A DNA stretch of 64,000 nt, taken from the NCBI GenBank assembly GCA_050011775.1, contig JBEKIL010000003.1, forward strand, positions 230,853-294,852. The letters are read 5' to 3'. The DNA is from Bacteroidota bacterium (GTDB lineage: Bacteria > Bacteroidota > Ignavibacteria > UBA10030 > CAVZMI01). Position numbers and translations under genes: made by a program. The notes beneath the pieces were generated by a model. It searched no databases and was not told the origin of the DNA. It was given only the letters and a program-made list of their open reading frames with translations. Below are positions 1-64,000 of the stretch, one piece after another; positions within the stretch are counted from its first letter, which is position 1; every line of letters starts with the position of its first letter.

Positions 1-1
1 A

Positions 2-751
2 CGTCGCTGGCTTTCTCCGGTTTTTTTCACGGCTTTGATTATCCTCTGGCAGGTCTTATATCAACTTCAACTCTGGCCCGTATATCTTTTTCCTTCACCG
101 GCCGATGTAATATCGACTCTTCTAAATGGTGTATCGAACGGGACGATCCTACAAGGTGTCGGTGCAAGTCTCTGGCGTCTCCTGATAGGTTATATGATCT
201 CGCTGGCTATCGGTATCCCGCTCGGGTTTGCATCCGGGCGAATCAAGAGATTTGATCAGACGGTAGGAAAGCTTCTCCTGGGACTCCAGACACTTCCGAG
301 CATTTGTTGGCTCCCGCTCGCACTTCTATGGTTTGGATTAAACGAACGTGCCATAGTGTTTGTCGTCGTTATGGGAGCTGTTCTCTCTATCGCACTCTCG
401 GCGCGCGACGGCGTCCAGAGAGTCAGTCCGCTTTATCTCAGAGCTGCAACCAACATGGGTGTAAAAGGATGGAATCTCCATGCCAGGGTTATATTTCCTG
501 CATCACTTCCCTCCATCGTCACCGGTATGAAACTCGGCTGGTCGTTCGCCTGGCGGTCGTTAATGGCAGGTGAGTTGTTATACGGTAATACCGGACTCGG
601 TCAACTCTTGATGATGGGGCGGGAACTTAATGACATGAGTCAGGTCATTGCCATTATGCTTGTAATTGTTCTCCTGGGAGTTCTAACAGACCGCATCGTG
701 TTTGCCCCGGTTGAACGTCGAATGCACGAACGGTGGGGACTTGGCCAATGA
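2..751 (+). CDS. ABC transporter permease, NitT/TauT (TauC/SsuC/NrtB-like) family; 5' end lies outside window
   Basis: Frame open from the window edge with no in-frame stop before the listed M at 35. Multi-TM MetI-like permease with conserved cytoplasmic loop 'LRAATNMGVKGWNLHARVIFPASLPSIVTGMKLGWSFAWRSLMAGEL'. Stop TGA (749-751) overlaps next start (ATGA). Confidence 0.7.
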   Translation, partial: RRWLSPVFFTALIILWQVLYQLQLWPVYLFPSPADVISTLLNGVSNGTILQGVGASLWRLLIGYMISLAIGIPLGFASGRIKRFDQTVGKLLLGLQTLPSICWLPLALLWFGLNERAIVFVVVMGAVLSIALSARDGVQRVSPLYLRAATNMGVKGWNLHARVIFPASLPSIVTGMKLGWSFAWRSLMAGELLYGNTGLGQLLMMGRELNDMSQVIAIMLVIVLLGVLTDRIVFAPVERRMHERWGLGQ

Positions 752-1872
752 ATGACCTTCATCTCTGTTTCATTCTCGATTCCTACCCTCCGGCGATCGG
801 TGGGGCAGAGACCGCTCTACAAAACATTTGCGAAGGACTCGCGCAGCGGAATTTTGATGTTACTGTAATCACCGCCTGGTTTGGTGGAAATGAACCGGTT
901 ATAGAGAAGAGCGAAGGTCTTACCGTCGTCCGTCTCAGGATTCCTCGACTCCTTCGCCGATTCTGGTTCGTTCAGCAGGCAATTCCCGCCATTCTCAGAT
1001 ATGCACGCAATTCTGATATCGTGGTTGGCAGCACTTACGGTGGTGTGCTCCCGGCTTTCCTTGGTTCTATTCTTCTGAAAAAAAAACGTGTGATGATGGT
1101 GCATGAAGTAATGAGGCACCGATGGTTCCGCTTTGAAAAAAATCCGCTGAAAGCCTTTTTTTATTATTTAACCGAGAAAATTCTCATACGGCTTCCGTTT
1201 CAGAGAGTAGTTGCTGTATCGGAATATACGCGGAATGAATTATTGCACATGGGTATGAATGATGAGGCTATCGATGTCATATACCATGGAATGCCAGACG
1301 GTGGAGCGAGACCTATTAGAAATCGCGATGAGGTTCGTACATCGCTTGGATTCGGAAAAGGCGATTTTCTCTACCTTGCCTTTGGCCGCTTGGGCGTTAC
1401 GAAGGGCTTTCAGTATCTTGCTCGTGCAATACCGGAGATAATACGACAAGTGCCTCAAGCCCGATTTTTATTGATTTTTTTTGACTATGATCGGCGGATC
1501 CGGCGTGAAATAGGGGAGGCTCTGGTAAAAGTCACATCGAACTCATACAAGCTATTTGATTCTGTCCCGCGTGAATTGTTAATTGATTATATCCATGCAG
1601 CAGATTGTGTGGTGATACCGTCGCTTTCAGAGGGATTTGGTTTTGCAGCGCTTGAAGCGTGCGCGGCAGGTACACCGCTCGTTGCGACAAAAGCCGGCGC
1701 TCTACCTGAGGTTGTGTACGGTCGCCATGTACTTGTTGAACCAGCTTCGGTCGAACAGCTTTCGGAAGGCTGCCGTCGGGTGTTCGAAGGCAGGACTTTG
1801 TATTCCGAACCGAAAGATTTTCGTTGGGAAACGTCGATTGAGAAATGGGAGATAATGTTTCGATCATTGTAA
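748..1872 (+). CDS. glycosyltransferase family 4 (retaining GT-B)
   Basis: C-terminal GT4 signature 'EGFGFAALEACAAGTPLVATKAGALPEVV'. Start ATG 748 forms an ATGA overlap with the upstream permease stop; the listed ORF start 733 is GTG. Confidence 0.8.
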   Translation: MNDLHLCFILDSYPPAIGGAETALQNICEGLAQRNFDVTVITAWFGGNEPVIEKSEGLTVVRLRIPRLLRRFWFVQQAIPAILRYARNSDIVVGSTYGGVLPAFLGSILLKKKRVMMVHEVMRHRWFRFEKNPLKAFFYYLTEKILIRLPFQRVVAVSEYTRNELLHMGMNDEAIDVIYHGMPDGGARPIRNRDEVRTSLGFGKGDFLYLAFGRLGVTKGFQYLARAIPEIIRQVPQARFLLIFFDYDRRIRREIGEALVKVTSNSYKLFDSVPRELLIDYIHAADCVVIPSLSEGFGFAALEACAAGTPLVATKAGALPEVVYGRHVLVEPASVEQLSEGCRRVFEGRTLYSEPKDFRWETSIEKWEIMFRSL

Positions 1873-1905
1873 CAAGACGGAAGATATATCATGATACAAA
1901 ATACA

Positions 1906-1988
1906 ATGCTGAGGAACAGGAAAAGGTAGAGGAAAAGTTTATCCCGAGCGAGTGAACGTAGTGAACGAGTCGAGGGGGTAAAGGGAAG
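1906..1988. repeat. purine-rich intergenic motif copies (AGGTAGAGG family), + orientation
   Basis: 'GGAAAAGGTAGAGGAAAAG' (1918-1937) and 'GGGGGTAAAGGGAAG' (1974-1988). Confidence 0.5.
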
Positions 1989-2345
1989 ATGTATAAATCT
2001 TTTAAAGAAATGCCGGTTTGGAAAGAGGCAATGTCGATTGCAGAGGAAGTGTTCCAGATTACAGAAGGACTTCCTAAGAAAGAAGATTATGGATTAACCT
2101 CGCAAATCCGAAGATCCACCTTGAGTATCTCCGCCAATATAGCAGAAGCATATGGGCGTAAACACACTCTTGATAAAAGAAAATTTTATTATACAGCCGG
2201 AGGGTCAACGACAGAAACACAAAACCACTTGGAATACGGATTGCGTGTTGGTTATTTTACTCGAATTCAAGTCGATGATTTTGATAAACGTTTAAATCAA
2301 ATATACAATGATCTCAATAAAATTATTGTGACAATAAAACCATAG
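1989..2345 (+). CDS. four-helix-bundle protein (23S rRNA intervening-sequence protein family, TIGR02436-like), copy 1
   Basis: 118 aa with '[59 protein letters not shown]'. Strong SD 'GGGGGTAAAGGGAAG' upstream. Paralog at 3873. Confidence 0.8.
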   Translation: MYKSFKEMPVWKEAMSIAEEVFQITEGLPKKEDYGLTSQIRRSTLSISANIAEAYGRKHTLDKRKFYYTAGGSTTETQNHLEYGLRVGYFTRIQVDDFDKRLNQIYNDLNKIIVTIKP

Positions 2346-2386
2346 CCTAAACCAAAACTTTTTTAACCTTAACCTTAACCTTTTCA

Positions 2387-2923
2387 ATGCCACCGAAACA
2401 GCGCTCTTTCGTCCTATGGTTCACAGGACTTCCCAGCTCGGGGAAGACTACGCTGGCTGACTCTGTCTATCGGTGGTTGAAGAGATACGGCTATAAGGTT
2501 GAGCGACTCGACGGCGATTCGATCCGTAAGGTATTTCCTCAAACCGGTTTTGACAAGAAATCACGTAATGAACATATCCGGAGAGTCGGATATATTGCCT
2601 CGATTCTTGAGCGAAACGGGATTACTGTCATCGCATCGTTTGTATCTCCTTATCGTGAGTCGAGAGATTTTGTCCGGGAGATCTGTAAACATTTTATCGA
2701 AGTCCATGTTGTCGCTCCAAACGAAGTCTGTGAGAAACGAGACGTGAAAGGATTATATCACCGGGCACGCAGCGGCGAAATCACGAATTTTACGGGCGTG
2801 AACGATCCTTTTGAAGAACCGCTCAAACCCGAATTGGTGGTGAGAACCGACACGAAATCGAAGAGAGCTTGTGTAAGAAAAATCACCGGATATCTCAGAC
2901 AACGTTATAAAATAAAACCTTAA
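2387..2923 (+). CDS. cysC: adenylyl-sulfate (APS) kinase
   Basis: P-loop 'FTGLPSSGKTTLA', 'LDGDSIRK' motif, ~180 aa, which is the typical size. Confidence 0.9.
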   Translation: MPPKQRSFVLWFTGLPSSGKTTLADSVYRWLKRYGYKVERLDGDSIRKVFPQTGFDKKSRNEHIRRVGYIASILERNGITVIASFVSPYRESRDFVREICKHFIEVHVVAPNEVCEKRDVKGLYHRARSGEITNFTGVNDPFEEPLKPELVVRTDTKSKRACVRKITGYLRQRYKIKP

Positions 2924-2949
2924 CCTTGATCTTTACCTCTACCTTTCCC
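2918..2949. repeat. pyrimidine-rich intergenic motif copy (CCTCTACCT, reverse orientation of AGGTAGAGG)
   Basis: 'CCTTAACCTTGATCTTTACCTCTACCTTTCCC' directly before cysD. A related (AACCTT)x3 tract sits at 2365-2382 before cysC. Confidence 0.5.
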
Positions 2950-2955
2950 TGACAC

Positions 2956-3837
2956 ATGAGCCATTTAGACAGATTAGAAAGCATTTCAATCTATATCCTT
3001 CGTGAAGCTTATGCAACGTTTCACAACCTCGGTATGCTGTGGTCGATTGGTAAAGATAGCACGGTTCTCCTCTGGTTGGTCCGGAAAGCGTTTTTCGGAC
3101 ATGTACCGTTTACATTGATTCATATTGATACCAGTTTCAAAATTCCAGAGATGATCCGATACCGCGATAAACTTGTTGAAGAACTCGGATTAAATCTGAT
3201 TTTTGGAATCAACGAAGAAGCGTTGAGAAAAAAACAAACGTTCCCCGACGGTCATGTAGACCACCTTGCATGCTGTAAAATCCTGAAGACCGACGCTCTC
3301 ATCAATACAATTAATGGTAACTGGACGCGATATCGCTTTAACCATACAACAAAAAGGTACGAACCAGAACATCATGGCGAGTCGTTCGATGGAATCATAG
3401 CCGGAGCACGGGCCGACGAAGAGGGCTCCCGATCGAAAGAGCGCTATTTTTCGGCACGCGATGAAAAAAGCCAGTGGGATATCGCCAGCCAGCCGCCTGA
3501 ATTCTGGAATTTTTATAAAACCGACTTTACCCCGGGGACACATGTCCGCATCCATCCGCTTCTTGATTGGACAGAACTGAACATCTGGGAATATATCAAA
3601 CGTGAAAATATCCCAACGGTATCGTTGTATTATAATAAAGGGGATGGGAAAAGATATCGTTCGCTCGGTTGTTATCCATGCACATTCCCGATCGACTCCG
3701 ACTCCAGAACAGTCGATGAGATCATCGAAGAACTTAAAAGTGGAAAGCTGAAAAACGTCGCTGAGAGAAGCGGGAGAGCTCAGGATAAGGAAGATCAGGG
3801 AGGTTTGGAAAGTTTGCGGAGAGACGGTTATATGTGA
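2956..3837 (+). CDS. cysD: sulfate adenylyltransferase subunit 2 (PAPS reductase-like fold)
   Basis: '[19 protein letters not shown]...HIDT...[18 protein letters not shown]', '[21 protein letters not shown]', 'LGCYPCT' align with CysD. Carries a ~25-aa insertion relative to the E. coli enzyme. Confidence 0.85.
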
Positions 3838-3872
3838 GGAAAAGGAAGAGGAAAAGGTTAAGGAGAGAAAAT

Positions 3873-4229
3873 ATGTTCAGATCTTTTAAGGAAATGCCGG
3901 TTTGGCAGGAGGCGATGTCGATTGCGGAAGAAATATTCCGGATCACCGAAACACTTCCGAAGAAAGAAGATTATGGTTTAACTTCTCAACTTCGACGAGC
4001 AGCCTCGAGTATTTCTGCAAATATAGCGGAAGCCTATGGCCGCAAACATTCTTTGGATAAGAAAAATTTTTATTATATAGCTCGAAGCTCTTCAACAGAG
4101 ACGCAAAGTCATCTTGAATATGGAATGCGGGTGGGATATTTTGAGAAGGAGCAAATCGATGTTCTTGACTCTCGTCTGGACCAACTATATAATGATATAA
4201 ATAAAATTATAATAACATTAAGATCATAG
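3873..4229 (+). CDS. four-helix-bundle protein (23S rRNA IVS protein family), copy 2
   Basis: '[60 protein letters not shown]', about 70% identical to copy 1. The listed ORF start 3834 gives an unlikely basic leader; ATG 3873 aligns with copy 1. Confidence 0.8.
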
Positions 4230-4230
4230 T

Positions 4231-4256
4231 CTCTACCTTTACCTATACCTTTACCT
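4231..4256. repeat. pyrimidine-rich intergenic motif copy (CTCTACCTTTACCT x2)
   Basis: 'CTCTACCTTTACCTATACCTTTACCT' directly before the cysN GTG start. The purine-rich mirror 'GAGGAAAAGGAAGAGGAAAAGGTTAAGGAGAG' lies at 3836-3867. Confidence 0.5.
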
Positions 4257-4261
4257 GTATT

Positions 4262-6067
4262 GTGTCTGATAGCCATCTAAATATCATCGTCGCCGGCCAT
4301 GTCGATCATGGAAAGAGCACAATAATCGGCCGTCTTCTCGCTGATACCGGCTCTTTACCTGATGGGAAGCTCGAGCAGGTGAAGGCCTTGTGCGAGCGCA
4401 ACTCTAAGCCGTTCGAATATGCATTTCTGATCGATGCTCTTAAAGATGAGCGTTCGCAGGGCATTACCATCGATGCCGCGCGCGTGTTTTTCAAGACTGA
4501 AAAAAGGCATTACATTATTATCGACGCGCCGGGACATATCGAATTTTTAAAAAATATGGTGACCGGGGCATCGCGGGCCGGGGCAGCAATACTGGTGATT
4601 GATGCTTCGGTAGGCGTTCAGGAAAATTCACGTGGGCACAGCTATTTACTTTCATTGCTGGGGATACGTCAGATTGCTGTCGTTATTAATAAAATGGACA
4701 TCGCCGGATACCGGAAAGAGGTGTTCGATAAACATGTGAAAGAGTTTTCGCAATTCCTTGAAACGATAGGAATTTGCGCTGTGAATTTCATCCCGGTCAG
4801 CGGCTGCAGGGGAGATAACATAGCAGCGAGAAGTGCCGCGATGAAATGGTACACAGGGGCGACAGTGCTTGAGACTCTTGATACATTCGAGGAATCAAAA
4901 ACTCCGCCGGATCTTCCGTTCAGGTTCCCGGTTCAGGATGTTTATAAGTTTACGAAATATAAAGACACCCGCCGGATTATCGCCGGCACGGTTTCTTCAG
5001 GTTCAATCCGTCCGGATGACGAAATAGTCTTTTATCCTTCGGGGAAGAGGAGCAGAGTAGCGACCATCGAGGAATTCAATGCTACTCCGCCTCAGCTCGC
5101 CTGCACAGATTCGGCAACCGGTTTCACTCTCAAGGAACAAATCTATGTCACACGCGGTGAAATAGCTGCAAAGGTTGGAGAACCGCCTCCACAGATTTCG
5201 TCACGACTGCGCGTCAGTCTCTTCTGGATGGCAAGACGCCCGCTTTCCGTCGGGAAACAATATATTTTGAAATGCGGAACGGCAAGGACTCATATGCAAA
5301 TAGAAGAACTGATAAAAGTGATCGATGCTTCCGATCTTCATACATTGTCCGTTCAGAACATTGTTGAGCGGCACGAGGTTGCCGAGTGTGTTATGAAATT
5401 GGAGAAGGCGATTGCGTTTGATCGTGTAGGCGATATAGCAGGGACGGGGCGGTTCGTCGTCGTAGATGAGTATGAGATAGCCGGAGGTGGTATAATTCTC
5501 GATACACTTGAGGATCAACAAGCTTTTGTACGCGAGAAAGTTCTCACCCGTAATATCAAGTGGGAAAAAAGTACTATCCCGTCAGAAGTTCGCGCCGAGC
5601 GATTTAAACAGAAACCCGGTTTGATTCTTATAACGGGTAAAAAGGACAGCGGTAAAAAGCCGCTCGCACGGGCGCTGGAGAAAAAATTGCTCGATGGTGG
5701 ATATCATGCATATTTCCTCGGGATCGGGAATATATTATACGGAGTCGATGCAGATATCAAAGGAATTCATGATGACAGGTACGAGCATATCCGGAGGCTG
5801 GCTGAAGTCTCGAACATTCTTCTCGACACCGGTATAATACTTATTGTCACTGCCATTGAGCTTCAAGTAGACGAAATCGATCTGATTCGAATGACGTGTA
5901 ATGAATATGGAATAATGACAATCTGGGTCGGTGAAAGTGGAACTCCCGTAGTAGACTTTGATATCACAGTTTCAAGCAGCACGCCGATCGATGCAGCTGC
6001 TGAAAAAATAATCCATGATATTCAAAAGAGGTTATTCAGCGCAGGGAAAGGAAATTACAATAGCTGA
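4262..6067 (+). CDS. cysN: sulfate adenylyltransferase subunit 1 (GTPase) fused to a degenerate APS-kinase-like C-terminal domain (CysNC-type)
   Basis: GTG start. G1 motif '[19 protein letters not shown]', 'DAPGH', 'NKMD' GTPase motifs. C-terminal ~160 aa resembles APS kinase ('[27 protein letters not shown]') but the P-loop S/T and the DGD motif are not conserved ('GIGN'). Confidence 0.85.
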
Positions 6068-6081
6068 ATGCAATTGAAAGG

Positions 6082-6888
6082 ATGTACGTATTGAGAATCG
6101 TGGCTATAATGACAATTAGAAATGAAGAACTCTATCTCCCGAGAGTGTTAGCGAATCTATATAATCAGGGAATTGAGGTTTGCCTGGTCGACAATGGATC
6201 AACGGATTCGAGTCCGGAGATCGCCCGCTCTTTTCTGGAAAAGGGGGTAGCGAGAATTGAACAATTGCCTTATAAGGGTTTTTATGATTTATTTTCAATC
6301 TTAGAAAATGAAAGAAAATTGGTAAAAGAGATCGATGCGGATTGGTTCATACATCACGATGCAGATGAAATCCGTGAAGCTCCTATGCCGCCTTATAAAA
6401 CTCTTTATGAAGGAATTCAGGATGTCGACCGGATGGGCTATAATGCGATTAACTTTGATGAATTCGTTTTTTTGCCGACGAGTGATGAAGAGCATTACGA
6501 AGGGACTGATTATATTAAAGAGATGCGTTATTATTATTTATTTGAACCCGGTCCATTACGGCGTGTAAATGCATGGAAGAATTTAAAGAAACCGATCGAC
6601 TTGAAAAGCTGGGGAGGGCATCAGGTTAATTTTACTGACCGGAGGATATTTCCAGGCAATTTTATTATGCGACATTATATTGCTCTAAGTAAAGTTCATA
6701 TTATTAAAAAATATGGAGAAAGGGTATATTCTAAATATGAGGTAAACGAATTGGGTTGGCATAAGTATCGTATCGGATTTCGGACCGATCGTTTGGTTTT
6801 CCCAAAAAAGGAAGATATTTGTTGTACTGACACGAATCATTGGGATAGATCGAAACCAAGGCATCAACATTTATTTCTGAAGCAGTAA
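6082..6888 (+). CDS. putative glycosyltransferase family 2 protein (Glyco_tranf_2_4-like)
   Basis: 'IVAIMTIRNEELYLPRVLANLYNQGIEVCLVDNGSTDSSPEIA' fits the GT2_4 pattern (RNE...DNgStD); 'HHDADE' acidic motif. Confidence 0.5.
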   Translation: MYVLRIVAIMTIRNEELYLPRVLANLYNQGIEVCLVDNGSTDSSPEIARSFLEKGVARIEQLPYKGFYDLFSILENERKLVKEIDADWFIHHDADEIREAPMPPYKTLYEGIQDVDRMGYNAINFDEFVFLPTSDEEHYEGTDYIKEMRYYYLFEPGPLRRVNAWKNLKKPIDLKSWGGHQVNFTDRRIFPGNFIMRHYIALSKVHIIKKYGERVYSKYEVNELGWHKYRIGFRTDRLVFPKKEDICCTDTNHWDRSKPRHQHLFLKQ

Positions 6889-7000
6889 TATATGGCTATG
6901 AAAAACCTTCCTGGTACAATCGATGTATTTTATTGTTCAGTCGATAACTTGCTACGTAGACTACTAGACGCTAATTCTCAAATATAAAAGCTACCTTCCC

Positions 7001-9656: not shown

Positions 9657-9715
9657 GATTCCAAAGCTGCAGCCGCAAAAGGTAACTTAATAATAACCAA
9701 CGAGGAAAAGCCGCG

Positions 9716-56305: not shown

Positions 56306-57466
56306 ATGAATGAAAATAGGATGGCAAATCCGCAACAGAAGCGGCAGTACGATAATCGTATTGATTTACTGAAAGGTATAGCAATTTTTGGTGTTGCATG
56401 TATCCATTTCGGAGGGAGTTTTGTCGGCGATTCCGTAGTTTTATGGACTGCTCCTTTTTACGTCGGATTATTTCTCAACCAATTTTTTAGCTTCTCCGTG
56501 GCGTTGTTTATTTTTCTTTCAGGATGGCTTCTTGAGTATCAATATACCTCGAGGCCTTTCCATGTGTCGACATTTTATCGCCGTCGTCTCATTCGCATTT
56601 TGATCCCTTATACTGTTGTTGTGGGCGCATATTTTGTGTTATTACCGGAGTCGGAAATCATCAAAGCCGTTACTCCATCGAACTTTTTAATTAAATTCTT
56701 CTATTATGGCGTCCAAGGAACACAATATTTCATATCGCTTATCCTCCAGCTCTATATCGTATATCCGGTACTGCGGTGGATAAAAAATAAAATTTCTTCA
56801 ACCGGTATACGCTGGCTATCTTTCGTACCAATGTTAGTCTTAATCGCTATTCATGGAACGCTTGGTTTTATGACATATTCAAACAAACTCGATTACTATA
56901 CATGGTGCAGACCCTTTTCTCTCTTTTGGATGGTATTTTTTTATGGGGGAATGGTGGCATATTCATCTCGTCAGTCAATGAAACAGCCGGTCAGCATGTA
57001 TTTATTTTTGGGTGCGGTGTTTTCTTTTTTGATCGGAATGTTCATCCTTATCATGAGTCGTCTCTTGAATCCGGCGATTGTGGGGATGGATTTTGGGAAA
57101 TCAATGATCGATTATGCCTATTCGCGGCCGGAGATTATGTTCTACAACATCATATGGATCATTATCATAGCGTTTGTTCTGCGACTCCAGTGGTCTTTTC
57201 GTGCCGCCTTACTCGAGCAATGGGGAAAAAATTCTTACACAATCTATCTCTGGCATATTTTGTTCATTTATTACATTGCATGGAATCAGCCGGTGGTCCT
57301 TGAGACATGCAGAAATTTCCCCGAAGTGATCGTTTTTGTGTGTATATTTGCATGCATGGTGATCTCGGCGGCAAGCCGCTGTATCGATTACGCTCAGGCA
57401 TTTCTTCTGATTCAGTGGAAATCTTTGCGGGCAAGGCTGGTGCCCTCCAAAGTAGAAGGATCGTAG
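56306..57466 (+). CDS. acyltransferase family 3 (OatA/WecH-like membrane O-acyltransferase)
   Basis: 'YDNRIDLLKGIAIFGVACIHF' N-terminal signature, ~10 TM, 386 aa. Confidence 0.8.
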   Translation: MNENRMANPQQKRQYDNRIDLLKGIAIFGVACIHFGGSFVGDSVVLWTAPFYVGLFLNQFFSFSVALFIFLSGWLLEYQYTSRPFHVSTFYRRRLIRILIPYTVVVGAYFVLLPESEIIKAVTPSNFLIKFFYYGVQGTQYFISLILQLYIVYPVLRWIKNKISSTGIRWLSFVPMLVLIAIHGTLGFMTYSNKLDYYTWCRPFSLFWMVFFYGGMVAYSSRQSMKQPVSMYLFLGAVFSFLIGMFILIMSRLLNPAIVGMDFGKSMIDYAYSRPEIMFYNIIWIIIIAFVLRLQWSFRAALLEQWGKNSYTIYLWHILFIYYIAWNQPVVLETCRNFPEVIVFVCIFACMVISAASRCIDYAQAFLLIQWKSLRARLVPSKVEGS

Positions 57467-57475: not shown

Positions 57476-58225
57476 ATGACAGGTACTCCGGTAGACAGCG
57501 GTGATATCGTCTATGACGTCTCGGGCGATCCATACTACGTTGAAGATCTTCAGATGATGGCGAAAGCGGTCCGTTATAGGCAATGGCTCTATGATCTTCT
57601 TCATCCTTTCCTGGGGACGCAAATTCTGGAAGTAGGAGGAGGAATTGGAAATTACACATTGATGTTTGTCGGGAATGCAGAATCAGTGGTGAGCATCGAA
57701 CCGAATGCATATTGTTTTGACAGGCTGTCCGAAGCCACGAAAGATGATCCAAAAATACAAATCTTGAAGACAGACCTGGAACACCTGCATTTTTCACTGC
57801 TGGATTCGAAAGAGTTCGATACGGTAGTCTCGATTAATGTTTTGGAGCATATCGCGGATGATATGAAGGCTGTCGAAAAGATGAAGTCGTACCTTCTTCC
57901 CGGCGGGAGACTTGTCCTGATCGTTCCGGCTGTCCCTGCGGCTTTTGGTGGTATCGACCGGAAGGTAGGCCACTACCGACGCTACTCCCGTAAGATGATC
58001 CGGGAATTATTTCGGAAGGCAGGGATGGAGAGCGAAATTATACGATATTTCAATTTCGCTGGCCTTCTTGGGTGGTTCTGGAACGCAAAAATCTGGCCGA
58101 GGAATACACAGAGCGAACGGCAAATTATGATTTTTGACACCTATCTCGTCCCTCTGATCTCGCGCCTTGAATATGTCGTGCCAGCCCCCGTCGGGCAATC
58201 GCTTCTGGCTGTAGCGCGAAAATGA
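57476..58225 (+). CDS. class I SAM-dependent methyltransferase
   Basis: 'ILEVGGGIGNYTLMFV', 'VVSINVLEHIADDMKAVEKM', 'PGGRLVLIVP'. Confidence 0.75.
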   Translation: MTGTPVDSGDIVYDVSGDPYYVEDLQMMAKAVRYRQWLYDLLHPFLGTQILEVGGGIGNYTLMFVGNAESVVSIEPNAYCFDRLSEATKDDPKIQILKTDLEHLHFSLLDSKEFDTVVSINVLEHIADDMKAVEKMKSYLLPGGRLVLIVPAVPAAFGGIDRKVGHYRRYSRKMIRELFRKAGMESEIIRYFNFAGLLGWFWNAKIWPRNTQSERQIMIFDTYLVPLISRLEYVVPAPVGQSLLAVARK

Positions 58226-59450: not shown

Positions 59451-60368
59451 ATGATCAGCATCGTCACTCCGTCATCCAACAGCGGGAAATATATTCAACA
59501 GGCGATCCGAAGCGTTCTTGAACAGGAAGGAATTAAGTTAGACTATATTATTGTCGACGATGGTTCCACAGATGAAACTCTCGATATTATACGCTCATTC
59601 GGAAATAGACTGCGCTACATCTCGGAACCAGATCGGGGACAGTCGGAAGCCATCAACAGGGGCATCAGGATGTCGTACGGAGATATTATCGGATGGCTTA
59701 ATGCAGACGATTACTATCACCCCGGAACGCTTCGATTTATTAATGATTATTTTGCGAAGAATCCGGAAGTGATGCTTTTATATGGCGACGGTACGTTGGT
59801 GAAAGAAGATGGAACGGTTATGAAACCATTTCCGACAGAGGAGTACTCCCTTGAGAGATTAGCGTATCGGTGCATTATATGTCAGCCGGCGGCGTTTTGG
59901 CGGCGGTCGCTATGGGAAAAAGTCGGACCATTGGATATCTCGCTTCATTATGCTATGGATCTCGATTTCTGGATCCGTGCAGGTAAAGCTCTTAAACGGC
60001 ATCCGGAGTGGCGGTTCGTTTATATTCCAAAAGTCTTTGCATATTCTCGAATGCATCGGCACACAAAAACAATGACCCAGCATCGGGAAGTTTTGCACGA
60101 AGTTGTCAGCGTAATGAAAAAGCATTTTGGCTATGTGTCTTTTCCCTGGGTATATGGAATCGAAGAGGTTCGCGATCCGCGATACGACGGGATCATCAAA
60201 AAAAGTCCGGTTTCCTTCTCTTTGATCGCAAGGAGCCTTATGAAATGGATATGGCAGAACAGGATGCGGCCCGATCACATTATTCGCTTTATCGGCATGG
60301 TCCTATTTTCGCCCCGAAAGAGCTGGCAGAAAATGAAGGAGAGAACGGGAGATGAAGAGATAGGTTAA
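59451..60368 (+). CDS. glycosyltransferase family 2
   Basis: 'MISIVTPSSNSGKYIQQAIRSVLEQEGIKLDYIIVDDGSTDETLDIIRSF', 'GWLNADDYY'. Confidence 0.8.
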   Translation: MISIVTPSSNSGKYIQQAIRSVLEQEGIKLDYIIVDDGSTDETLDIIRSFGNRLRYISEPDRGQSEAINRGIRMSYGDIIGWLNADDYYHPGTLRFINDYFAKNPEVMLLYGDGTLVKEDGTVMKPFPTEEYSLERLAYRCIICQPAAFWRRSLWEKVGPLDISLHYAMDLDFWIRAGKALKRHPEWRFVYIPKVFAYSRMHRHTKTMTQHREVLHEVVSVMKKHFGYVSFPWVYGIEEVRDPRYDGIIKKSPVSFSLIARSLMKWIWQNRMRPDHIIRFIGMVLFSPRKSWQKMKERTGDEEIG

Positions 60369-60382
60369 GGTAGAGGTAGAGG
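60362..60382. repeat. purine-rich intergenic motif copy (AGGTTAAGGTAGAGGTAGAGG)
   Basis: Same 9-mer AGGTAGAGG twice in tandem, about 40 kb from the other copies. Confidence 0.5.
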
Positions 60383-60500: not shown

Positions 60501-63116
60501 TTGCGCGTCGGATTCCTACGACCGAATTTCATCATAGAAGACATTATGATTTTATTGAAAGAAGCCTTACGGGTATTAATTGAAGAAGGAATCGGCAGTT
60601 TTTACAGGAAGTCGGTACGCTACGGAAAGCTGAAATTCCATGGAATACTCTTTAAGCTTAAAATGCTTGCGAGAAAACGAAAAGCCGTGATATTCCCGTA
60701 TGACGCAATGATGATGCCCGAAGTTAACGAGGGAAAAAATATAGCTTTTACTATCGGAACAAAAAATCATCTGCATCGTTCATTGACACTCCGGGACTCG
60801 TTCCTGAAGCATAATCCCGATTGGAAATTTGTAATCTTTATATCAGACATGCTGCAGAGCAACGATGAAATGATATATTGCAAAAACCTGATCGAGAAAG
60901 GTGTTGACATTATTTTTGTTCATGCACTCAAAAACAGGATACGTATCGACACACTGGAAGAAATGTTTTTTAAATATACCGTATTTGAGATGAGTACGTC
61001 CTTAAAACCATTCCTGCTGGAATATTTTTTGCAGCAGGGTTGCGAAAGGGTAATATATTTCGATTCCGATATCTACTGCCTCAATTCCATCGAGCAGGTT
61101 ACGGCTCTTTTAGACAATTACGATATTATCCTGACACCTCATATACTGAAGCCGTATGACGATGACAGGAATCCGGACGAGATAAAAATTCTCCTTTCGG
61201 GTTCATTTAATCTCGGGTTCATAGCCGTAAGGAATTCCGGCGAGACACTGCAATTCTGCCGTTGGTGGCAGCAGCGTCTTTTTAAGCATTGTTTTATGGA
61301 TGTGCATAATGGAATCCATGCCGATCAAAAATGGATCGATCTGATTCCCTCATTTTTCAATAATTATTATATCTTAAAAAATCCGGGATATAACGTCGCT
61401 TATTGGAATCTTCATGAGAGAAAAATCCGCCAGGAAAGAGGAACCTGGTATGTCAATGACGAAAAATTGGTTTTATTCCATTTTAGCGGATTAGATATCA
61501 ACGATCCGTTTGCGATTTCGATACATCAAAATCGGTATACGCTTTATGATGTGCCGTCGTTGGATCCGCTGTTTGAGGAATACAGGGAGGAGATTTTCAA
61601 ACACGGTTATGATATTGATAGGAATTGGAAATACTATTTCGACTATTTACCGACGACGACGATACGAATTCCGGATTCTGTCCGGCGCTTATTCTATAAG
61701 GAAGTACTACAGGAAACGAAAAATCCGTATACCCCTGATGCTGAAATTCTAAATAAAACGATAAATTCACTGACACGTGAGGTCGAAAGCGGGAGCGGTA
61801 TTAATCGGATCGCCTATTCTCTCTGGAACACGAGGAATGATCTCCGCCAAACCTATCCGAATCTCAGCGATAGAAATGAGCAACAACGTTTCAGAGATTG
61901 GTATCTCGGCTCGGCGTATCGCGAAAATCATATCGATAAAATATTTATTCGGGAGGACCCGGATGTAAAAGAAATTGCACCACCTAATAATGGAATGCCT
62001 GGGATTAACATCATAGGATATTTCCCCTACGATTTTGGGAATGCCATAACAACGCGAATATTCGTCAAGAAGGTGTATGAAACCGGGATACCATTCACAC
62101 TATTTCCGTTGCAGACGGGTGAACATGCGTTGATAAATCCGGAAGAACAGGCTGAATTTAAGATGTATTATGCACAACAACCGCTCTTCAAAAAAAATAT
62201 TTTTTTTGTGAATGCGGATATCATAAAGTTTGTCAGGAGAAATTATCCGGCGCTATTCAAAGGAAAGCAGAACTCGGCTGTGTGGTGGTGGGAGTTTGAG
62301 AATGATTTTCCGTTTTCCGATTCCTTTCAGTATATCGACGAGGTGATCGTTTTTTCAGATTTTGTATACTCTGCGATCGCCAAATACGCGCCTCCGCATG
62401 TGAGCGTGAATAAGATGCGATATCCTTTTATTCAGGACTGGAAGATAGTGACGTCACCGCACAGGGTGCGAGAGGCGTTGGGGTTTTCCGACGATAATTT
62501 TATTTTTATTTTTAATTTTGATTTTTTGAGTTCGTATGAGCGTAAAAACCCGGAAGCAGTTGTACGTGCATTCGCTCAGGCATGCCGGGAACGGAAGGAA
62601 GCCCGCCTGATAATCAAGACGTTGCACGGGTATGCGTTTCCGGAAAGATATGCTCAATTAAAAAAATGCATAGCCAATTCCACAATATCTAATCAGATTG
62701 TTCTGATTGAAGATATATTCCCCCGGAACGAGTTTATGAATTTGATGAACGCGGTTGATTGTTATGTTTCATTGCATCGCTCCGAGGGTTTCGGGCTCGG
62801 TATGTTCGAGGCGATGGTTATGGGGAAGCCCGTGATCGCGACAGCCTATGGCGGAAATTGCGAATATATGCACGACACCCATTCGCTGCTTGTAGATTAT
62901 GAATTGACCACATCGAAGGATACACTTTTTGATGTTTATCAAAAGGGATGGGTGTGGGCCGAGCCAAAGATTTCACCTGCTGTTGAATATATGCACGAGC
63001 TGTGCGTTAATCCCTCACGGGCGCGGGAGATTGGAAAACGCGGGAAGGTGTTTGCGGATGCGTTTTGCAGCAGCGCCACATTTTCAAACGATTTCTACAA
63101 TTATGTAGGACGATGA
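60501..63116 (+). CDS. bifunctional glycosyltransferase: N-terminal GT-A-like (DxD 'YFDSDIY') domain plus C-terminal GT4 domain
   Basis: N-terminal 'VIYFDSDIYCLNSI', 'GSFNLGFIAV'. C-terminal 'VSLHRSEGFGLGMFEAMVMGKPVIATAYGGNCEYM'. True start may be ATG ~60546. Confidence 0.65.
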   Translation: MRVGFLRPNFIIEDIMILLKEALRVLIEEGIGSFYRKSVRYGKLKFHGILFKLKMLARKRKAVIFPYDAMMMPEVNEGKNIAFTIGTKNHLHRSLTLRDSFLKHNPDWKFVIFISDMLQSNDEMIYCKNLIEKGVDIIFVHALKNRIRIDTLEEMFFKYTVFEMSTSLKPFLLEYFLQQGCERVIYFDSDIYCLNSIEQVTALLDNYDIILTPHILKPYDDDRNPDEIKILLSGSFNLGFIAVRNSGETLQFCRWWQQRLFKHCFMDVHNGIHADQKWIDLIPSFFNNYYILKNPGYNVAYWNLHERKIRQERGTWYVNDEKLVLFHFSGLDINDPFAISIHQNRYTLYDVPSLDPLFEEYREEIFKHGYDIDRNWKYYFDYLPTTTIRIPDSVRRLFYKEVLQETKNPYTPDAEILNKTINSLTREVESGSGINRIAYSLWNTRNDLRQTYPNLSDRNEQQRFRDWYLGSAYRENHIDKIFIREDPDVKEIAPPNNGMPGINIIGYFPYDFGNAITTRIFVKKVYETGIPFTLFPLQTGEHALINPEEQAEFKMYYAQQPLFKKNIFFVNADIIKFVRRNYPALFKGKQNSAVWWWEFENDFPFSDSFQYIDEVIVFSDFVYSAIAKYAPPHVSVNKMRYPFIQDWKIVTSPHRVREALGFSDDNFIFIFNFDFLSSYERKNPEAVVRAFAQACRERKEARLIIKTLHGYAFPERYAQLKKCIANSTISNQIVLIEDIFPRNEFMNLMNAVDCYVSLHRSEGFGLGMFEAMVMGKPVIATAYGGNCEYMHDTHSLLVDYELTTSKDTLFDVYQKGWVWAEPKISPAVEYMHELCVNPSRAREIGKRGKVFADAFCSSATFSNDFYNYVGR

Positions 63117-63303
63117 ACCGGTGCAATTTCAATGAAGGATTTTCAAAATTGATAAATTATCCGAATATCGAACTGATAGGGGCAAGTCCGCATGAATTGT
63201 TTAATTTTTTTTTAAGCAGACGATATTGGGTGCCATATCATCGAGAGACTGTTATTTCTATTAATTCACATTCGAGATCATATTATCATCTTTTAGAATA
63301 TCT

Positions 63304-64000
63304 ATGAAATCCGAACTCCGCTCTAAAATCGAAAACAAACAAGCTGTTGTTGGCGTTGTCGGACTTGGCTACGTCGGACTGCCGCTCTTGCTCTGCTTCG
63401 TCGAAAAAGGCTTCCATACCATTGGCCTCGATATCGATTACCGAAAAACCGAAGCGCTGATGAAGGGCGATTCATATATCAAACACATTCCCGCATGGAG
63501 AATTCACAATGCGGTGAAGTCAGGTTTATTTCAAGCGACGACAGATTTTTCTACGGCATCATCATGTGACGCGATCCTCATTGCCGTACCGACGCCGTTG
63601 AACAAAAACCGCGAGCCGGATATGACGTATATAACCTCGACATGCGAATCGCTTGTTCCATATATCCATCGGAATCAGGTGATCGTCCTTGAATCCACAA
63701 CATATCCCGGAACTACGGTCGAGGTTGTGATCCCCATCCTTGAAAAAAGCGGATTGAAAGTCGATAAGGATTTCTATGTATCATTTTCTCCGGAGCGGGA
63801 AGACCCTAACCGATCAGATTACTCCACGGAGACGATTCCGAAAGTGGTCGGTTCGACATCGGCCGACGGCTTGGAGATGACCGACTTATTATATCGACAG
63901 ATCGTTGTACGAACGGTCCTCGTCTCTTCAACGCAAATTGCGGAAGCCACTAAGCTTATGGAAAATATTTTCAGATCAGTGAATATTGCCCTCGTGAATG
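63304..64000 (+). CDS. nucleotide-sugar dehydrogenase (UDP-glucose/GDP-mannose dehydrogenase family; UDP-N-acetylhexosamine 6-dehydrogenase-like), 3' end outside window
   Basis: 'VVGLGYVGLPLLLCF' NAD-binding fingerprint, 'VILESTTYPGTTVEV' family motif; no stop before the window end. Confidence 0.8.
   Translation, partial: MKSELRSKIENKQAVVGVVGLGYVGLPLLLCFVEKGFHTIGLDIDYRKTEALMKGDSYIKHIPAWRIHNAVKSGLFQATTDFSTASSCDAILIAVPTPLNKNREPDMTYITSTCESLVPYIHRNQVIVLESTTYPGTTVEVVIPILEKSGLKVDKDFYVSFSPEREDPNRSDYSTETIPKVVGSTSADGLEMTDLLYRQIVVRTVLVSSTQIAEATKLMENIFRSVNIALVN

Follow-up and report, generated by a model that had tools for sequence, protein, structure and literature searches.

The 64-kb stretch of DNA analysed here (positions 1-64000, the window), from an uncultured member of the Ignavibacteriota, probably covers the greater part of a mosaic super-locus for cell-envelope glycans. 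In our reading a dedicated supply of PAPS serves two or more glycans that are sulfated, methylated and exported, a sulfotransferase may act as a ruler of chain length, and further decoration takes place in the periplasm. Gene content, motifs, folds and conserved neighbourhoods are observed; the substrates, the sequence of steps, the cap and what the importer carries are our interpretation of them.

All 50 of the substantial plus-strand ORFs in the window are backed by Pfam or NCBIfam HMMs, and non-nested ORFs of at least 100 aa lie on the + strand without exception; the ten minus-strand ORFs (115-192 aa) gave no Pfam match. Coding sequence takes up ~94% of the window, the median intergenic gap is 45 nt, and 26 of the 49 junctions are 50 nt or shorter or overlap, bearing out the single-orientation run with short or overlapping junctions described in an initial annotation of this DNA. 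The gene counts given there also hold, and the profiles support the sulfotransferase and PAPS assignments: besides the PAPS genes there are four sulfotransferase domains from two families (Sulfotransfer_3 at 7001-7894, 16833-17597 and the N-terminus of 41934-45086; Sulfotransfer_1 at 38937-39665), nine SAM methyltransferase domains (starting at 29105, 30194, 34141, 34653, 46344, 47207, 51074, 51984 (N-terminus) and 57476), two acyltransferases (hexapeptide/VioB-like, 15110-15772; Acyl_transf_3, 56306-57466), 20 GT domains that take in three GT-C-like proteins of ~900 aa, and two Wzm/Wzt ABC exporters (23396-24943 and 39643-41885). Three GtrB/ArnC/AglJ-like polyprenyl-phosphate GT2s start at about 14053, 32990 and 58283. 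GC content per 2-kb window ranges from 0.357 to 0.483, the difference between blocks that had been noted before. No initiating transferase or ligase was found in the 64-kb window, and the locus begins upstream of it, with an SsuABC-like importer.

Central to our reading is a 1050-aa protein encoded directly after the second wzm-wzt pair:

38937-39665, +, sulfotransferase ST1 (Sulfotransfer_1, 32.7 bits against a cut-off of 22)
39643-40488 and 40485-41885, +, Wzm2 and Wzt2, ABC exporter of pathway B
41934-45086, +, sulfotransferase-coiled coil-GT2 protein (Pfam), candidate chain terminator/ruler and glycosyltransferase

The protein consists of an N-terminal PAPS-type sulfotransferase, a coiled coil of ~240 residues and a C-terminal GT2 module, and its PAPS-binding motifs PRSG(S/T) and RNPxDxxxS are invariant in 31 homologues. 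An AF2 model places the sulfotransferase domain (residues 1-290) and a GT-A domain (809-1050) at a pLDDT of about 90, with helices at 297-410 (114 residues) and 435-532 (98 residues) between them; the coiled coil has a pLDDT of 50-69 in this monomer model, and the mask that delimits it is crude. Foldseek matched the model to the CurM sulfotransferase (4gbm) and WrtF (9omm), and the sulfotransferase domain itself matches the CurM and OLS sulfotransferases. At E<=1e-30 the family counts no fewer than 196 representative clusters. The sulfotransferase is N-terminal in every one, and among the 78 members that reach 450 aa, 72 carry a coiled-coil-like segment straight after it. Where GT modules are lacking, the protein ends in an aromatic/basic helix; many members also carry methyltransferase domains, and in P0008 a domain homologous to ST1 is fused to a sulfotransferase-coiled-coil protein.

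A wzm-wzt pair adjoins the family gene in 7 of 9 contexts looked up, five of these with Wzt_C; one of these contexts, in the cultured Rhizobium sp. AAP43, comes with cysD-cysNC as well. Among 46 metagenome loci of the family, at least 20 have a same-strand wzt within 4 kb upstream (abutting in 13), its product being of CBM length in 19 of the 20; counted by hand, some 21 of the 25 long forms had this upstream wzt, and short forms without it fell mostly among the 26 wzt-less loci. Compared across loci with a linked sulfotransferase, the binding domains of the Wzt proteins showed no detectable kinship with one another. In the present locus Wzt2 carries a C-terminal Wzt_C carbohydrate-binding domain (53.8 bits against a cut-off of 30.4), the best solved match of its nucleotide-binding domain is the Aquifex O-antigen Wzt (8dku, 8e-65), and the gene order is that of wzm-wzt-wbdD. 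As a rule the terminator of such systems resides in the coiled-coil protein (PMC11231755).

The sulfotransferase-coiled-coil-GT2 protein is seemingly an enzyme type that has not been described before, and by analogy with known terminators we see an even chance that this type ends sugar chains by a sulfate cap. Its GT2 module would sit at the membrane with the polymerase while the coiled coil would keep the sulfotransferase at a fixed distance, so that a chain that had grown long enough would be sulfated at its non-reducing end, possibly with methylation too; the cap would halt growth and would be the one needed by the Wzt2 binding domain for export. In two relatives, L084 and L092, the sulfotransferase-coiled-coil gene comes after a Wzt without a carbohydrate-binding domain, and the cap-reading step is therefore not universal. 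The same pairing would fit a serious, if somewhat less probable, alternative, namely that the protein sulfates internal residues and its coiled coil has no role beyond oligomerising or scaffolding the assembly complex, the sulfate being neither terminator nor export signal; the methyltransferase domains of many family members could then be the real terminators, and a sulfate-capped glycan was not found in the literature searched. Against this, the order of modifying domain, long coiled coil and membrane-proximal helix or GT modules is that of all characterised terminators, as is the place directly after wzm-wzt(CBM), the coiled-coil-only members with their C-terminal helix mirror WbdD, and other sulfotransferases in the same loci could carry out internal sulfation.

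Once exported, the glycans may be modified further by a set of membrane-associated and sugar-supplying enzymes:

7977-9656, +, polytopic membrane protein, ~10 TM, no family match, candidate GT-C or polymer-modifying enzyme
9716-10882, +, WecE-type dTDP-4-amino-4,6-dideoxyhexose transaminase (NF008687, 612.6 bits against a cut-off of 375)
10914-12119, +, polytopic membrane protein, ~11 TM, no family match
12077-13081, +, flippase-like membrane protein, LPG_synthase_TM (PF03706, 2.8e-38; TIGR00374 above cut-off)
14053-14997, +, ArnC/GtrB-like polyprenyl-phosphate sugar synthase (GT2 with C-terminal TMs)
15110-15772, +, NeuD/PglB/VioB-family sugar N-acetyltransferase (TIGR03570, 165.1 bits against a cut-off of 160.8)
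30834-32771, +, polytopic membrane protein, ~10 TM, no family match; real start probably downstream of 30834
32990-34144, +, AglJ/Dol-P-hexose-synthase-like GT2 with 4 C-terminal TMs
36064-38862, +, GT-C-like membrane glycosyltransferase 1, 932 aa, ~14 TM (PMT_2, 21.7 bits, below cut-off)
48190-50964, +, GT-C-like membrane glycosyltransferase 2 (PMT_2, 22.7 bits)
53548-56274, +, GT-C-like membrane glycosyltransferase 3 (PMT_2, 31.2 bits against a cut-off of 26.1)
56306-57466, +, Acyl_transf_3 membrane O-acyltransferase (PF01757, 9.5e-29)
about 58283/58292-59236, +, AglJ/GtrB-like polyprenyl-phosphate sugar synthase

GT-C-like proteins 2 and 3 are 57.5% identical and protein 1 is 25-30% identical to both; two of the three have PMT_2 scores below the Pfam cut-off, which makes their assignment to GT-C a weak one, and no solved relative of these ~900-aa proteins was found by sequence. 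We propose that the three synthases, the flippase-like protein and the three GT-C-like enzymes would add side-chain sugars after export, perhaps together with the three unclassified polytopic proteins, and that the Acyl_transf_3 enzyme would add O-acyl groups; the WecE and VioB homologues suggest that one side-chain sugar is probably a 4-acetamido-4,6-dideoxyhexose. Gtr/Arn-type three-component systems likewise combine a polyprenyl-phosphate sugar synthase (GT2 with C-terminal TMs), a flippase candidate and a GT-C enzyme, and they also act on ABC-transporter-dependent O antigens (PMC11127046). Here the GT-C proteins are ~900 aa long with weak PMT_2 similarity only, and the flippase-like LPG_synthase_TM protein stands in a locus where no GtrA, SMR or MATE flippase was detected. 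The GT-C-like and GtrB-like enzymes might instead glycosylate proteins, in the manner of PMT-like O-glycosylation, or lipid A/core, in that of ArnT, since the sole family signal, PMT_2, also spans ArnT-like enzymes and protein mannosyltransferases, the product of 14053-14997 resembles ArnC most closely, and the adjacent transaminase and N-acyltransferase follow an Arn-like logic; we consider this unlikely, as the genes are interleaved with methyltransferases and polymer GTs, and side-chain addition to ABC-exported O antigens is an established role of such systems.

The remaining glycan genes fall to either side of a transposon-like seam:

6091-6888, +, GT2 glycosyltransferase
7001-7894, +, sulfotransferase ST3a (Sulfotransfer_3, 43.4 bits against a cut-off of 27; GGSGTR loop)
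13147-13986, +, BKACE (beta-keto acid cleavage enzyme family; PF05853, 4e-81)
15818-16825, +, GT2 glycosyltransferase
16833-17597, +, sulfotransferase ST3b (Sulfotransfer_3, 46.7 bits; HRSGTS and REPSSIAES motifs)
17708-19864, +, two-module GT2-GT4 glycosyltransferase, polymerase candidate
20350-21414, +, GT4 glycosyltransferase
21708-23360, +, nadE, glutamine-dependent NAD+ synthase (NF010588, 703.9 bits against a cut-off of 479)
23396-24208 and 24221-24943, +, Wzm1 and Wzt1, ABC exporter of pathway A (ABC2_membrane, ABC_tran)
25164-28882, +, 175-aa ORF without assignment, GT2 (25676-27280) and GT4 (27479-28882)
29105-31000, +, two SAM methyltransferases (29105-30073, 30194-31000)
34141-35324, +, two SAM methyltransferases (34141-34761, 34653-35324)
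35466-35810, +, seam: shortened IS200/Y1-transposase-like ORF (Y1_Tnp, E=0.039), then REP-like palindromes
45086-46327, +, GT1/GT4-type glycosyltransferase
46344-48178, +, methyltransferase pair: Methyltransf_24 (46344-47207), class I (47207-48178)
51074-51952, +, FkbM-family methyltransferase (PF05050, 6.6e-21)
51984-53477, +, methyltransferase-GT2 fusion
57476-58225, +, SAM methyltransferase
59451-60368, +, GT2, 33% identical to the GT2 module of 41934-45086
60546-63116, +, two-module GT8-like/GT4 glycosyltransferase
63304-64000, +, UDP-glucose/GDP-mannose dehydrogenase, running past the window end

The BKACE gene has no evident place in the glycan scheme, and nadE is a gene of housekeeping type amid the glycan genes. 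Taken together, the two exporters, a carbohydrate-binding domain in only one of them, the IS200-like seam with its REP-like hairpins and the cysN-wzm1/wzt1 order of relatives indicate that two or more glycan pathways have been joined in a mosaic locus, which would then not be the source of one polymer. The seam sits in a 739-nt gap (35325-36063) and includes a 10-bp hairpin at 35783-35805; the Wzm1/Wzt1 orthologues of L084 and L092 come directly after cysN, and the ~17-kb block that separates cysN from wzm1 here is missing from relatives with cysCDN-wzm1-wzt1. The mosaic origin first suggested in the initial annotation is supported; its single glycan is not. From the exporters and the one seam we infer a boundary between pathway A (about 733-28882), with ST3a, ST3b and a Wzt1 that lacks a carbohydrate-binding domain, and pathway B (about 29105-63116), with ST1, the sulfotransferase-coiled coil-GT2 protein and Wzt2. 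The GT2 and GT4 enzymes would build at least two polyprenol-linked glycans on the cytoplasmic face, where the four PAPS-type sulfotransferases would sulfate them and up to nine SAM methyltransferases would O-methylate them; since both donors, PAPS and SAM, are cytoplasmic, these two steps are placed ahead of export, and the two Wzm/Wzt transporters would then export the finished glycans. A single polymer, heavily sulfated, methylated and acylated and made by all 64 kb, with both exporters serving that product or its precursor, would suit the uninterrupted co-oriented run with its short junctions, the failure to find a convincing intergenic terminator and the presence of sulfotransferases and methyltransferases in both halves, but we judge it improbable, given that the two complete Wzm/Wzt pairs differ in type (nucleotide-binding domains 44% identical, a binding domain in one only), that the seam and the relatives' gene order intervene, and that the halves differ sharply in Shine-Dalgarno (SD) use: a core SD precedes 13 of 49 starts, 12 of these 13 lie before 36064, and the second half as a whole makes little use of SD sites.

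The donor for these sulfotransferases would come from genes at the start of the window:

2-751, +, permease of an SsuABC/TauABC-like ABC importer (BPD_transp_1)
748-1872, +, GT4 glycosyltransferase (Glyco_transf_4 and Glycos_transf_1; gene call in L001)
2387-2923, +, cysC, APS kinase (TIGR00455, 202.7 bits against a cut-off of 138.7; canonical P-loop and LDGD motif)
2956-3837, +, cysD, ATP sulfurylase small subunit (NF003587, 345.9 bits against a cut-off of 195)
4262-6067, +, cysN, ATP sulfurylase GTPase subunit (TIGR02034, 347 bits against a cut-off of 336.1)

CysN has a degenerate C-terminal APS-kinase-like domain in which the P-loop [12 protein letters not shown] is replaced by LGIGN. CysD/CysN would convert sulfate to APS and CysC would convert APS to PAPS, giving a dedicated cytoplasmic sulfate donor. 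The importer, whose binding protein (NMT1/SsuA_fam, above cut-off) and ATPase are encoded just upstream of the window, and which in L084 sits between cysC and cysD, is probably a candidate supplier of sulfate or a sulfur compound to this module. No cysH, cysI or sir was found in the window (61 kb downstream of the cys genes) or in the 7.6-kb upstream flank, so that the assimilatory neighbours that would have argued against a role in sulfation did not appear, and the PAPS genes seem to be reserved for that role. We surveyed 80 GTDB loci of the closest CysD relatives, 46 of them well flanked (at least 15 kb of sequence). One to five sulfotransferase genes lie within 10 kb in 21 of these 46, and 57 of 60 sulfotransferase ORFs in the whole set were confirmed by Pfam; cysC is adjacent in 65 of the 80 loci and a cysH-like gene in four, all four without cysC, the two adjacencies being mutually exclusive. 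This kind of locus is known already and common, and the rarity in bacteria first claimed for cysDNC with sulfotransferases in an ABC-exported locus is contradicted by this survey and by a Vibrio capsule locus (PMC11641403). We hold it improbable that cysC-cysD-cysN serve general assimilation beside the glycan genes, with a CysH encoded elsewhere reducing PAPS and the sulfotransferases sharing the pool, for although our evidence covers one contig region and CysC is also needed in PAPS-reductase-type assimilation, the local lack of cysH/cysI/sir, the survey, the second, dedicated cys set of the Vibrio precedent, and the bracketing of the cys genes by a GT4 on one side and GT2/sulfotransferase genes on the other, kept within glycan genes in the closest relatives L004 and L005 (with wzm/wzt and sulfotransferases), L084 and L092, all speak against it.

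Small gene cassettes lie beside the cys genes:

1910-2385, +, IVP cassette 1: left arm 1910-1937, ORF 2010-2345, right arm 2356-2385 (23S_rRNA_IVP, 3.6e-31; TIGR02436)
2913-2951, +, solo pyrimidine-rich arm between cysC and cysD
3835-4258, +, IVP cassette 2: left arm 3835-3863, ORF 3873-4229, right arm 4219-4258 (23S_rRNA_IVP, 2.6e-34)

Cassette 1 has a purine-rich left arm, a pyrimidine-rich right arm and an ORF for a four-helix bundle; cassette 2 shares 77% nt identity with it, the arms of each pair in the predicted fold, and a conspecific strain holds an IVP ORF at the cysC-cysD junction. No core SD was found at the cysC, cysD or cysN starts, as first reported; this lack had been taken as a sign of mosaic origin, but it is explained by the pyrimidine-rich arms of these '23S-rRNA-IVP' cassettes, which abut the start codons.

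A dedicated ATP sulfurylase/APS kinase set beside a carbohydrate sulfotransferase, feeding one sulfated glycoconjugate, is familiar from rhizobial NodPQ/NodH. Such systems sulfate a lipo-chitooligosaccharide signal rather than an ABC-exported polymer, use one sulfotransferase against four here, and differ in phylum and gene organisation. The synechan (xss) cluster has a Wzx/Wzy-type, OPX/PCP export system and is not known to contain an embedded cysDNC. The sulfotransferases of this Synechocystis PCC 6803 cluster yield a sulfated extracellular polysaccharide, and the likeness is that of a bacterial polysaccharide cluster with sulfotransferases (PMC8205485). Vibrio sp. KMM 8419 has a sulfated capsule locus, likewise large, that carries second copies of cysC/N/D, several sulfotransferases, glycosyltransferases, an acyltransferase and ABC export; its authors regard PAPS genes together with sulfotransferases as the hallmark of a pathway to sulfated polysaccharides (PMC11641403), and Cobetia marina KMM 1449 offers a similar genomic insight. 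The Vibrio locus is gammaproteobacterial, uses a Kps-type (KpsMTED) exporter instead of Wzm/Wzt, and is reported without a coiled-coil sulfotransferase fusion, nine methyltransferases or GT-C modules; its product is chemically defined, whereas that of the present locus is predicted from genes. For the 1050-aa protein the nearest parallels are WbdD (E. coli O9a/Klebsiella O3), WbbB (Klebsiella O12) and ORF6 (Klebsiella O7). Neither WbdD nor WbbB showed detectable sequence homology to it, and for the catalytic domains none is expected. What is shared is the layout, with a chain-modifying catalytic domain at the N-terminus, a long coiled coil and, close to the membrane at the C-terminus, a helix or GT2 modules, as well as a gene directly after wzm-wzt and a Wzt with a C-terminal carbohydrate-binding domain; the difference is that the catalytic domain here is a PAPS-type sulfotransferase, where the known proteins have a kinase/methyltransferase or a Kdo transferase.

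We found that every non-nested ORF of at least 100 aa in the 64-kb window lies on the plus strand, as the initial annotation had described, with coding sequence occupying ~94% of the window, a median gap between genes of 45 nt, and 26 of 49 junctions either overlapping or no longer than 50 nt. Ten minus-strand ORFs (115-192 aa) gave no Pfam match and were rejected as genes. GC skew is positive over the whole window, and the GC content of 2-kb windows lies between 0.357 and 0.483. Annotation with Pfam and NCBIfam HMMs reproduced each of the gene counts first made from the sequence alone: four sulfotransferase (ST) domains from two Pfam families, nine SAM methyltransferase domains, one hexapeptide N-acetyltransferase and one Acyl_transf_3 O-acyltransferase, 20 GT domains, two Wzm/Wzt exporters, three GtrB/ArnC/AglJ-like GT2s and three GT-C-like proteins of ~900 aa. 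Sequence 100% identical to the window is contained in the 306-kb metagenome contig ENA ERZ27250059 k141_214204 and in two Logan contigs, and the closest GTDB genome is a MAG of the Ignavibacteriota (FCB group), whose CysD is 97% identical. With this match we discarded a cyanobacterial, Leptospira or anammox source, which GC content, the 23S_rRNA_IVP genes and the sulfated polymers had at first brought to mind. A scan of the whole window at Rfam gathering thresholds returned zero RNA families. Scans of positions 1-60000 for sigma-70 promoters and intrinsic terminators gave counts at the level of shuffled sequence, the one exception being a modest terminator excess in 1-20000 that is located mainly within ORFs, and such scans are thus unfit for delimiting operons.

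The genes for PAPS synthesis, each scoring above its NCBIfam cut-off, are:

2387-2923, plus strand: cysC (TIGR00455, 202.7 bits versus 138.7)
2956-3837, plus strand: cysD (NF003587, 345.9 bits versus 195)
4262-6067, plus strand: cysN (TIGR02034, 347 bits versus 336.1)

The stand-alone CysC is canonical, possessing both the Walker A motif GLPSSGKTT and LDGD. CysN carries an additional APS-kinase-like domain in its C-terminal part (5530-6067) that is degenerate, its P-loop being altered and LDGD gone, and this tail may be a regulatory or PAPS-binding remnant. The ST assignments also hold at gathering scores, with Sulfotransfer_3 matches of 43.4, 46.7 and 99 bits (versus 27) for the genes starting at 7001, 16833 and 41934, and a Sulfotransfer_1 match of 32.7 bits (versus 22) for the gene starting at 38937. 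Of the motifs expected for STs, a PKxGTT-like 5'-phosphosulfate loop and a 3'-phosphate motif RxxxDxxxS, 16833 has HRSGTS and REPSSIAES, 38937 has WKAGSQ and RDLRDTLVS, and in 7001 only the first loop is clear.

An alternative entertained at the outset was that the cys genes belong to an assimilatory operon with cysH or cysI alongside. However, neither these genes nor sir (PAPS/APS reductase, sulfite reductase) occur in the window or in its 7.6-kb upstream flank, and reductase genes are likewise absent beside the cys genes of the relatives compared. Instead, the cys genes are bracketed by a GT4 on one side and a GT2 and an ST on the other, and their embedding in glycan genes is kept in a conspecific MAG locus (L004), in a more distant relative (L005, with wzm/wzt and STs), and in two unrelated metagenome loci (L084 and L092). 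Together with the survey of GTDB loci described below, these observations argue against an assimilatory operon at this locus and for a PAPS supply probably dedicated to sulfation, on the NodPQ pattern. The sequence preceding the window carries thrA and genes for a T9SS-tailed cohesin protein and for an SsuA-family binding protein with an ABC ATPase. The binding protein and the ATPase begin an SsuABC-like importer (5783-8365 of the upstream-extended sequence, L001), the last gene of which is the permease at window 2-751; since the window opens within this permease gene, the co-oriented run starts ~1.8 kb before the window. An importer of the same type sits between cysC and cysD in L084 (1008-3569), and a TauE/SafE-family permease occupies the importer's place in L092 (436-1260). 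It may be that the PAPS module has a transporter of its own, bringing in sulfate or an organosulfur compound.

The cys operon includes two cassettes (1910-2385 and 3835-4258), each with a small four-helix-bundle ORF of the 23S_rRNA_IVP/Avd-like type (IVP) flanked on the left by a purine-rich arm and on the right by a complementary pyrimidine-rich arm of 6-nt period (CCTTTA/CCTATA). Solo arms are found at 2913-2951 and 60360-60381, and the motif of the arms was counted 15 times where 1.6 copies would be expected. The start codons of cysC, cysD and cysN each have a right arm directly in front of them, and MFE and centroid folds both predict that the arms pair. In this they look like the stem of an rRNA intervening sequence, and the cassettes could accordingly serve as sites of RNase III processing within the cys operon. 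At the junction of cysC and cysD (2924-2955 in the window), where the window shows no more than a solo arm, the locus of L004 (~94% nucleotide identity) carries a distinct IVP ORF; its cysD/cysN junction (window counterpart 3838-4261) holds a further IVP ORF together with an rve-type IS. In L004 coordinates these are:

9593-9940, minus strand: IVP ORF
10919-11266, minus strand: IVP ORF
11302-12303, minus strand: rve-type IS

These differences indicate that IVP cassettes have been gained and lost between strains. IVP genes were also found in or beside the cys operons of L084, L092, L007 (Calditrichaceae), L006 (Pirellulales) and L055 (Chloroflexi).

The initial annotation regarded a dedicated cysCDN set next to STs as rare in bacteria, a view that our survey and a precedent from Vibrio contradict. 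Among the 80 GTDB loci encoding the closest CysD relatives, cysC was adjacent in 65, and a cysH-like paralogue was adjacent in only 4, all of them without cysC. An iterated ST profile found ST ORFs no more than 10 kb away in 26 of the surveyed loci (57 of 60 ORFs being confirmed by Pfam), and at least one ST was present in 21 of the 46 loci having at least 15 kb of sequence. ST-bearing loci belong mostly to Gemmatimonadales (with up to five STs), Anaerolineae and Pirellulales. In the sulfated capsule locus of Vibrio sp. KMM 8419, second copies of cysC/N/D accompany three STs and ABC export, a combination that its authors term a hallmark (PMC11641403). The window, taken as a locus that makes a sulfated glycan and also encodes PAPS synthesis for it, is therefore of a kind already known and evidently common, in uncultured Gemmatimonadota, Chloroflexota, Planctomycetota and Ignavibacteriota, which implies that the capacity for sulfation is far broader than the few characterised cases. 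Sulfated bacterial glycans are wanted as glycosaminoglycan-like materials, and are invoked to explain the sulfated polymers of sludge granules, mats and sediments.

Rather than the single glycan first proposed, the evidence favours at least two ABC-transporter-dependent pathways. Each of the two Wzm/Wzt pairs encodes permease and nucleotide-binding protein together. The pair of pathway A spans 23396-24943; its Wzt1 is 240 aa long and has no C-terminal carbohydrate-binding domain, which places this pathway in the cap-independent subclass. The pair of pathway B spans 39643-41885; its Wzt2 is 466 aa long and carries a Wzt_C domain (53.8 bits versus 30.4), and the best solved relative of its nucleotide-binding part is the Aquifex O-antigen Wzt (8e-65). 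We found no WecA/WbaP-type initiating enzyme and no WaaL ligase family in the window or upstream flank; as initiation and ligation genes are often encoded elsewhere, this does not exclude a Wzm/Wzt pathway. In L084 and L092 the wzm1/wzt1 orthologues (63-67% nucleotide identity) directly follow cysN, so the ~17 kb that separates them in the window, from a GT2 through nadE, is extra. The nadE-type gene itself (21708-23360, 35 nt 5' of wzm1) encodes a full-length glutamine-dependent NAD+ synthase, and is missing from the corresponding place in relatives. The largest non-coding gap (35325-36063, 739 nt) holds a truncated IS200/Y1-transposase-like ORF (35466-35810, motif MPNHVHMV) followed by REP-like palindromes, GTAGGTCGAC...GTCGACCTAC, with a hairpin at 35783-35805. 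A core Shine-Dalgarno sequence precedes 12 of the first 32 starts (733-36064) versus 1 of the last 17 (38937-63304), a contrast that would fit if the blocks differ in origin, or if the donor lineages differed in how they initiate translation. The mosaic origin suspected earlier is thus supported by two exporter types, the ~17-kb extra block, the transposase remnant, the Shine-Dalgarno contrast and the IS and cassette differences from L004; on these data the locus would be pieced together from two or more ABC-transporter-dependent pathways, along with modules for periplasmic decoration.

The decoration genes fall in both halves of the locus. A WecE-type dTDP-4-amino-4,6-dideoxyhexose transaminase (9716-10882) and a VioB/PglB/NeuD-type N-acetyltransferase (15110-15772), both above cut-off, neighbour an ArnC-like GT2, a flippase-like protein and two unclassified polytopic proteins, and could together provide an Arn/Gtr-like route adding 4-acetamido-4,6-dideoxyhexose outside the cytoplasm. 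Between the flippase-like gene and the ArnC-like GT2 lies a beta-keto acid cleavage enzyme (BKACE, 13147-13986, 4e-81); to our knowledge BKACE has no known role in glycan synthesis, and it might make an unusual N-acyl group. In the second half are two AglJ/GtrB-like synthases, three GT-C-like paralogues and the O-acyltransferase. All three polyprenyl-phosphate sugar synthases (GT2 with C-terminal TM segments) score below equivalog cut-offs (ArnC 2e-56; AglJ 3e-38 and 6e-65), and among the GT-C-like proteins, which have 9-14 TM segments, PMT_2 is above its cut-off for 53548-56274 only (31.2 versus 26.1; the others 21.7 and 22.7). The proteins of 48190-50964 and 53548-56274 are 57.5% identical over their full length and each gene is followed by methyltransferase genes; by this measure the pair looks to be a fairly recent duplication. 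PDB sequence searches with a GT-C-like protein and the three unclassified membrane proteins gave no match, and a lenient Pfam search (E up to 5) of the same proteins was empty. Three-component periplasmic glycosylation is established for ABC-exported O antigens (PMC11127046). In place of the GtrA, SMR or MATE flippase of the Gtr/Arn systems, none of which was detected in the window, the locus has an LPG_synthase_TM flippase-like protein. Sulfation and methylation have to come before export, given that PAPS and SAM are cytoplasmic.

An unexpected gene of the locus (41934-45086) starts 48 nt after wzm2-wzt2 and encodes a protein of 1050 aa. Residues 1-290 are a Sulfotransfer_3 domain whose motifs PRSGST and RNPLDVFAS are invariant in 31 homologues. 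In the AlphaFold model, this domain and a C-terminal GT-A domain (809-1050) both have pLDDT of about 90, and between them are two long helices built of sequence repeats (297-410, 114 residues; 435-532, 98 residues), then shorter helices and a small weak domain. Among the four STs of the window, it is for this one that the fold was checked by model, and Foldseek matched the N-domain to the STs of CurM (4gbm, 3e-12) and OLS (4gox), and the C-domain to GT-A enzymes. The same ST subfamily also occurs as a domain in NRPS/PKS-type proteins with condensation, adenylation and carrier domains (P0037-P0063) from Chloroflexota, Acidobacteriota and Verrucomicrobiota MAGs, an occurrence that parallels the structural match to the CurM and OLS STs. 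A further ST (38937-39665) lies 5' of wzm2, and in one protein (P0008) its homologue is fused to a member of the ST-coiled-coil family.

This family is large. Among 1.84 billion proteins, the N-domain matched at least 196 representative clusters (50% identity, E<=1e-30), throughout which the ST domain is N-terminal, and of the 78 members that reach 450 aa, 72 have a coiled-coil-like stretch immediately following it (background 3.4%). Members having only the coiled coil end in an aromatic/basic tail of the W[WG][FY]RLA type (e.g. WWFRLARR or SYRLGRILL), and others have added GT2+GT4, GT4 or GT2+methyltransferase modules. The class was seen in Ignavibacteriota, in Rhizobium sp. AAP43, in Ca. Nitrosacidococcus (another of the contexts fetched) and in many metagenomes. 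In 7 of 9 individually fetched contexts wzm-wzt lies within three genes, with Wzt_C present in 5 of those 7. A Wzt with the binding domain accompanies the family in the window and in L086, L087, L088 and L091. Where 2.5 kb or more of sequence preceded the ST gene (46 metagenome loci), a wzt on the same strand no more than 4 kb upstream was found in at least 20, abutting the ST gene in 13, and Wzt is at least 380 aa long in 19 of these 20. Going by our own count over the per-locus table, an upstream wzt accompanies about 21 of 25 long forms, and the short forms (343-430 aa), counted as lacking it, are mostly among the 26 wzt-less loci. The helical tail of the short forms is only 30-50 aa (L117, L129-L132, L134, L137, L139, L141, L165, L167-L169), and wzm-wzt was not found beside them in these loci where sequence was available; the short form seems to be a separate functional subgroup.

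From this arrangement we infer a capping role for the ST at the end of the chain, with the coiled coil determining how long the chain grows. Extended to the whole class, the reading would be that N-terminal ST/coiled-coil proteins are widespread, undescribed ruler terminators of ABC-dependent glycans, placing sulfate (often with methylation) at the non-reducing end, with the cap as an export signal read by the carbohydrate-binding domain of Wzt and an SsuABC-like or TauE-type transporter as the dedicated sulfate supply. We hold this full reading only tentatively, judging it somewhat more likely to fail than to stand. Against capping and length control, in two relatives the Wzt found with the family has no binding domain. 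The Wzt C-terminal domains of the ST-linked loci proved, on comparison, too divergent to judge a shared ligand. Termination by these proteins is directly testable, since a compact module (gmd/rmd-GT2-cysD-cysNC-wzm-wzt-[ST-GT2-MT]-GT2-GT2), one of the 7 contexts with wzm-wzt, is present in the cultured Rhizobium sp. AAP43, at about 176.9-189.7 kb of LJHS01000004.1 in GCA_001296045.1.

In every characterised case examined, the terminator resides in a coiled-coil protein (PMC11231755). No Pfam or PDB match to WbdD or WbbB was obtained from 41934-45086, so that its relation to these proteins is one of architecture, not homology. An ST linked to termination, or a sulfate-capped O antigen, was not found in the open-access literature, a scope outside which most subscription journals fall. 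WbdD joins a kinase/methyltransferase through a coiled coil to a membrane helix, where 41934-45086 has an ST, a coiled coil and a GT2; WbbB (Kdo transferase, coiled coil, GTs) and ORF6 of Klebsiella O7 (methyltransferase-kinase, coiled coil, two GT2s) match it in order. The chance that the ST-ruler architecture is a variation on the Wzm/Wzt termination paradigm is even at best, or a little lower. If these proteins are terminators, sulfate would join methyl, methyl-phosphate and Kdo as a further cap by which Wzm/Wzt-dependent chains are ended.
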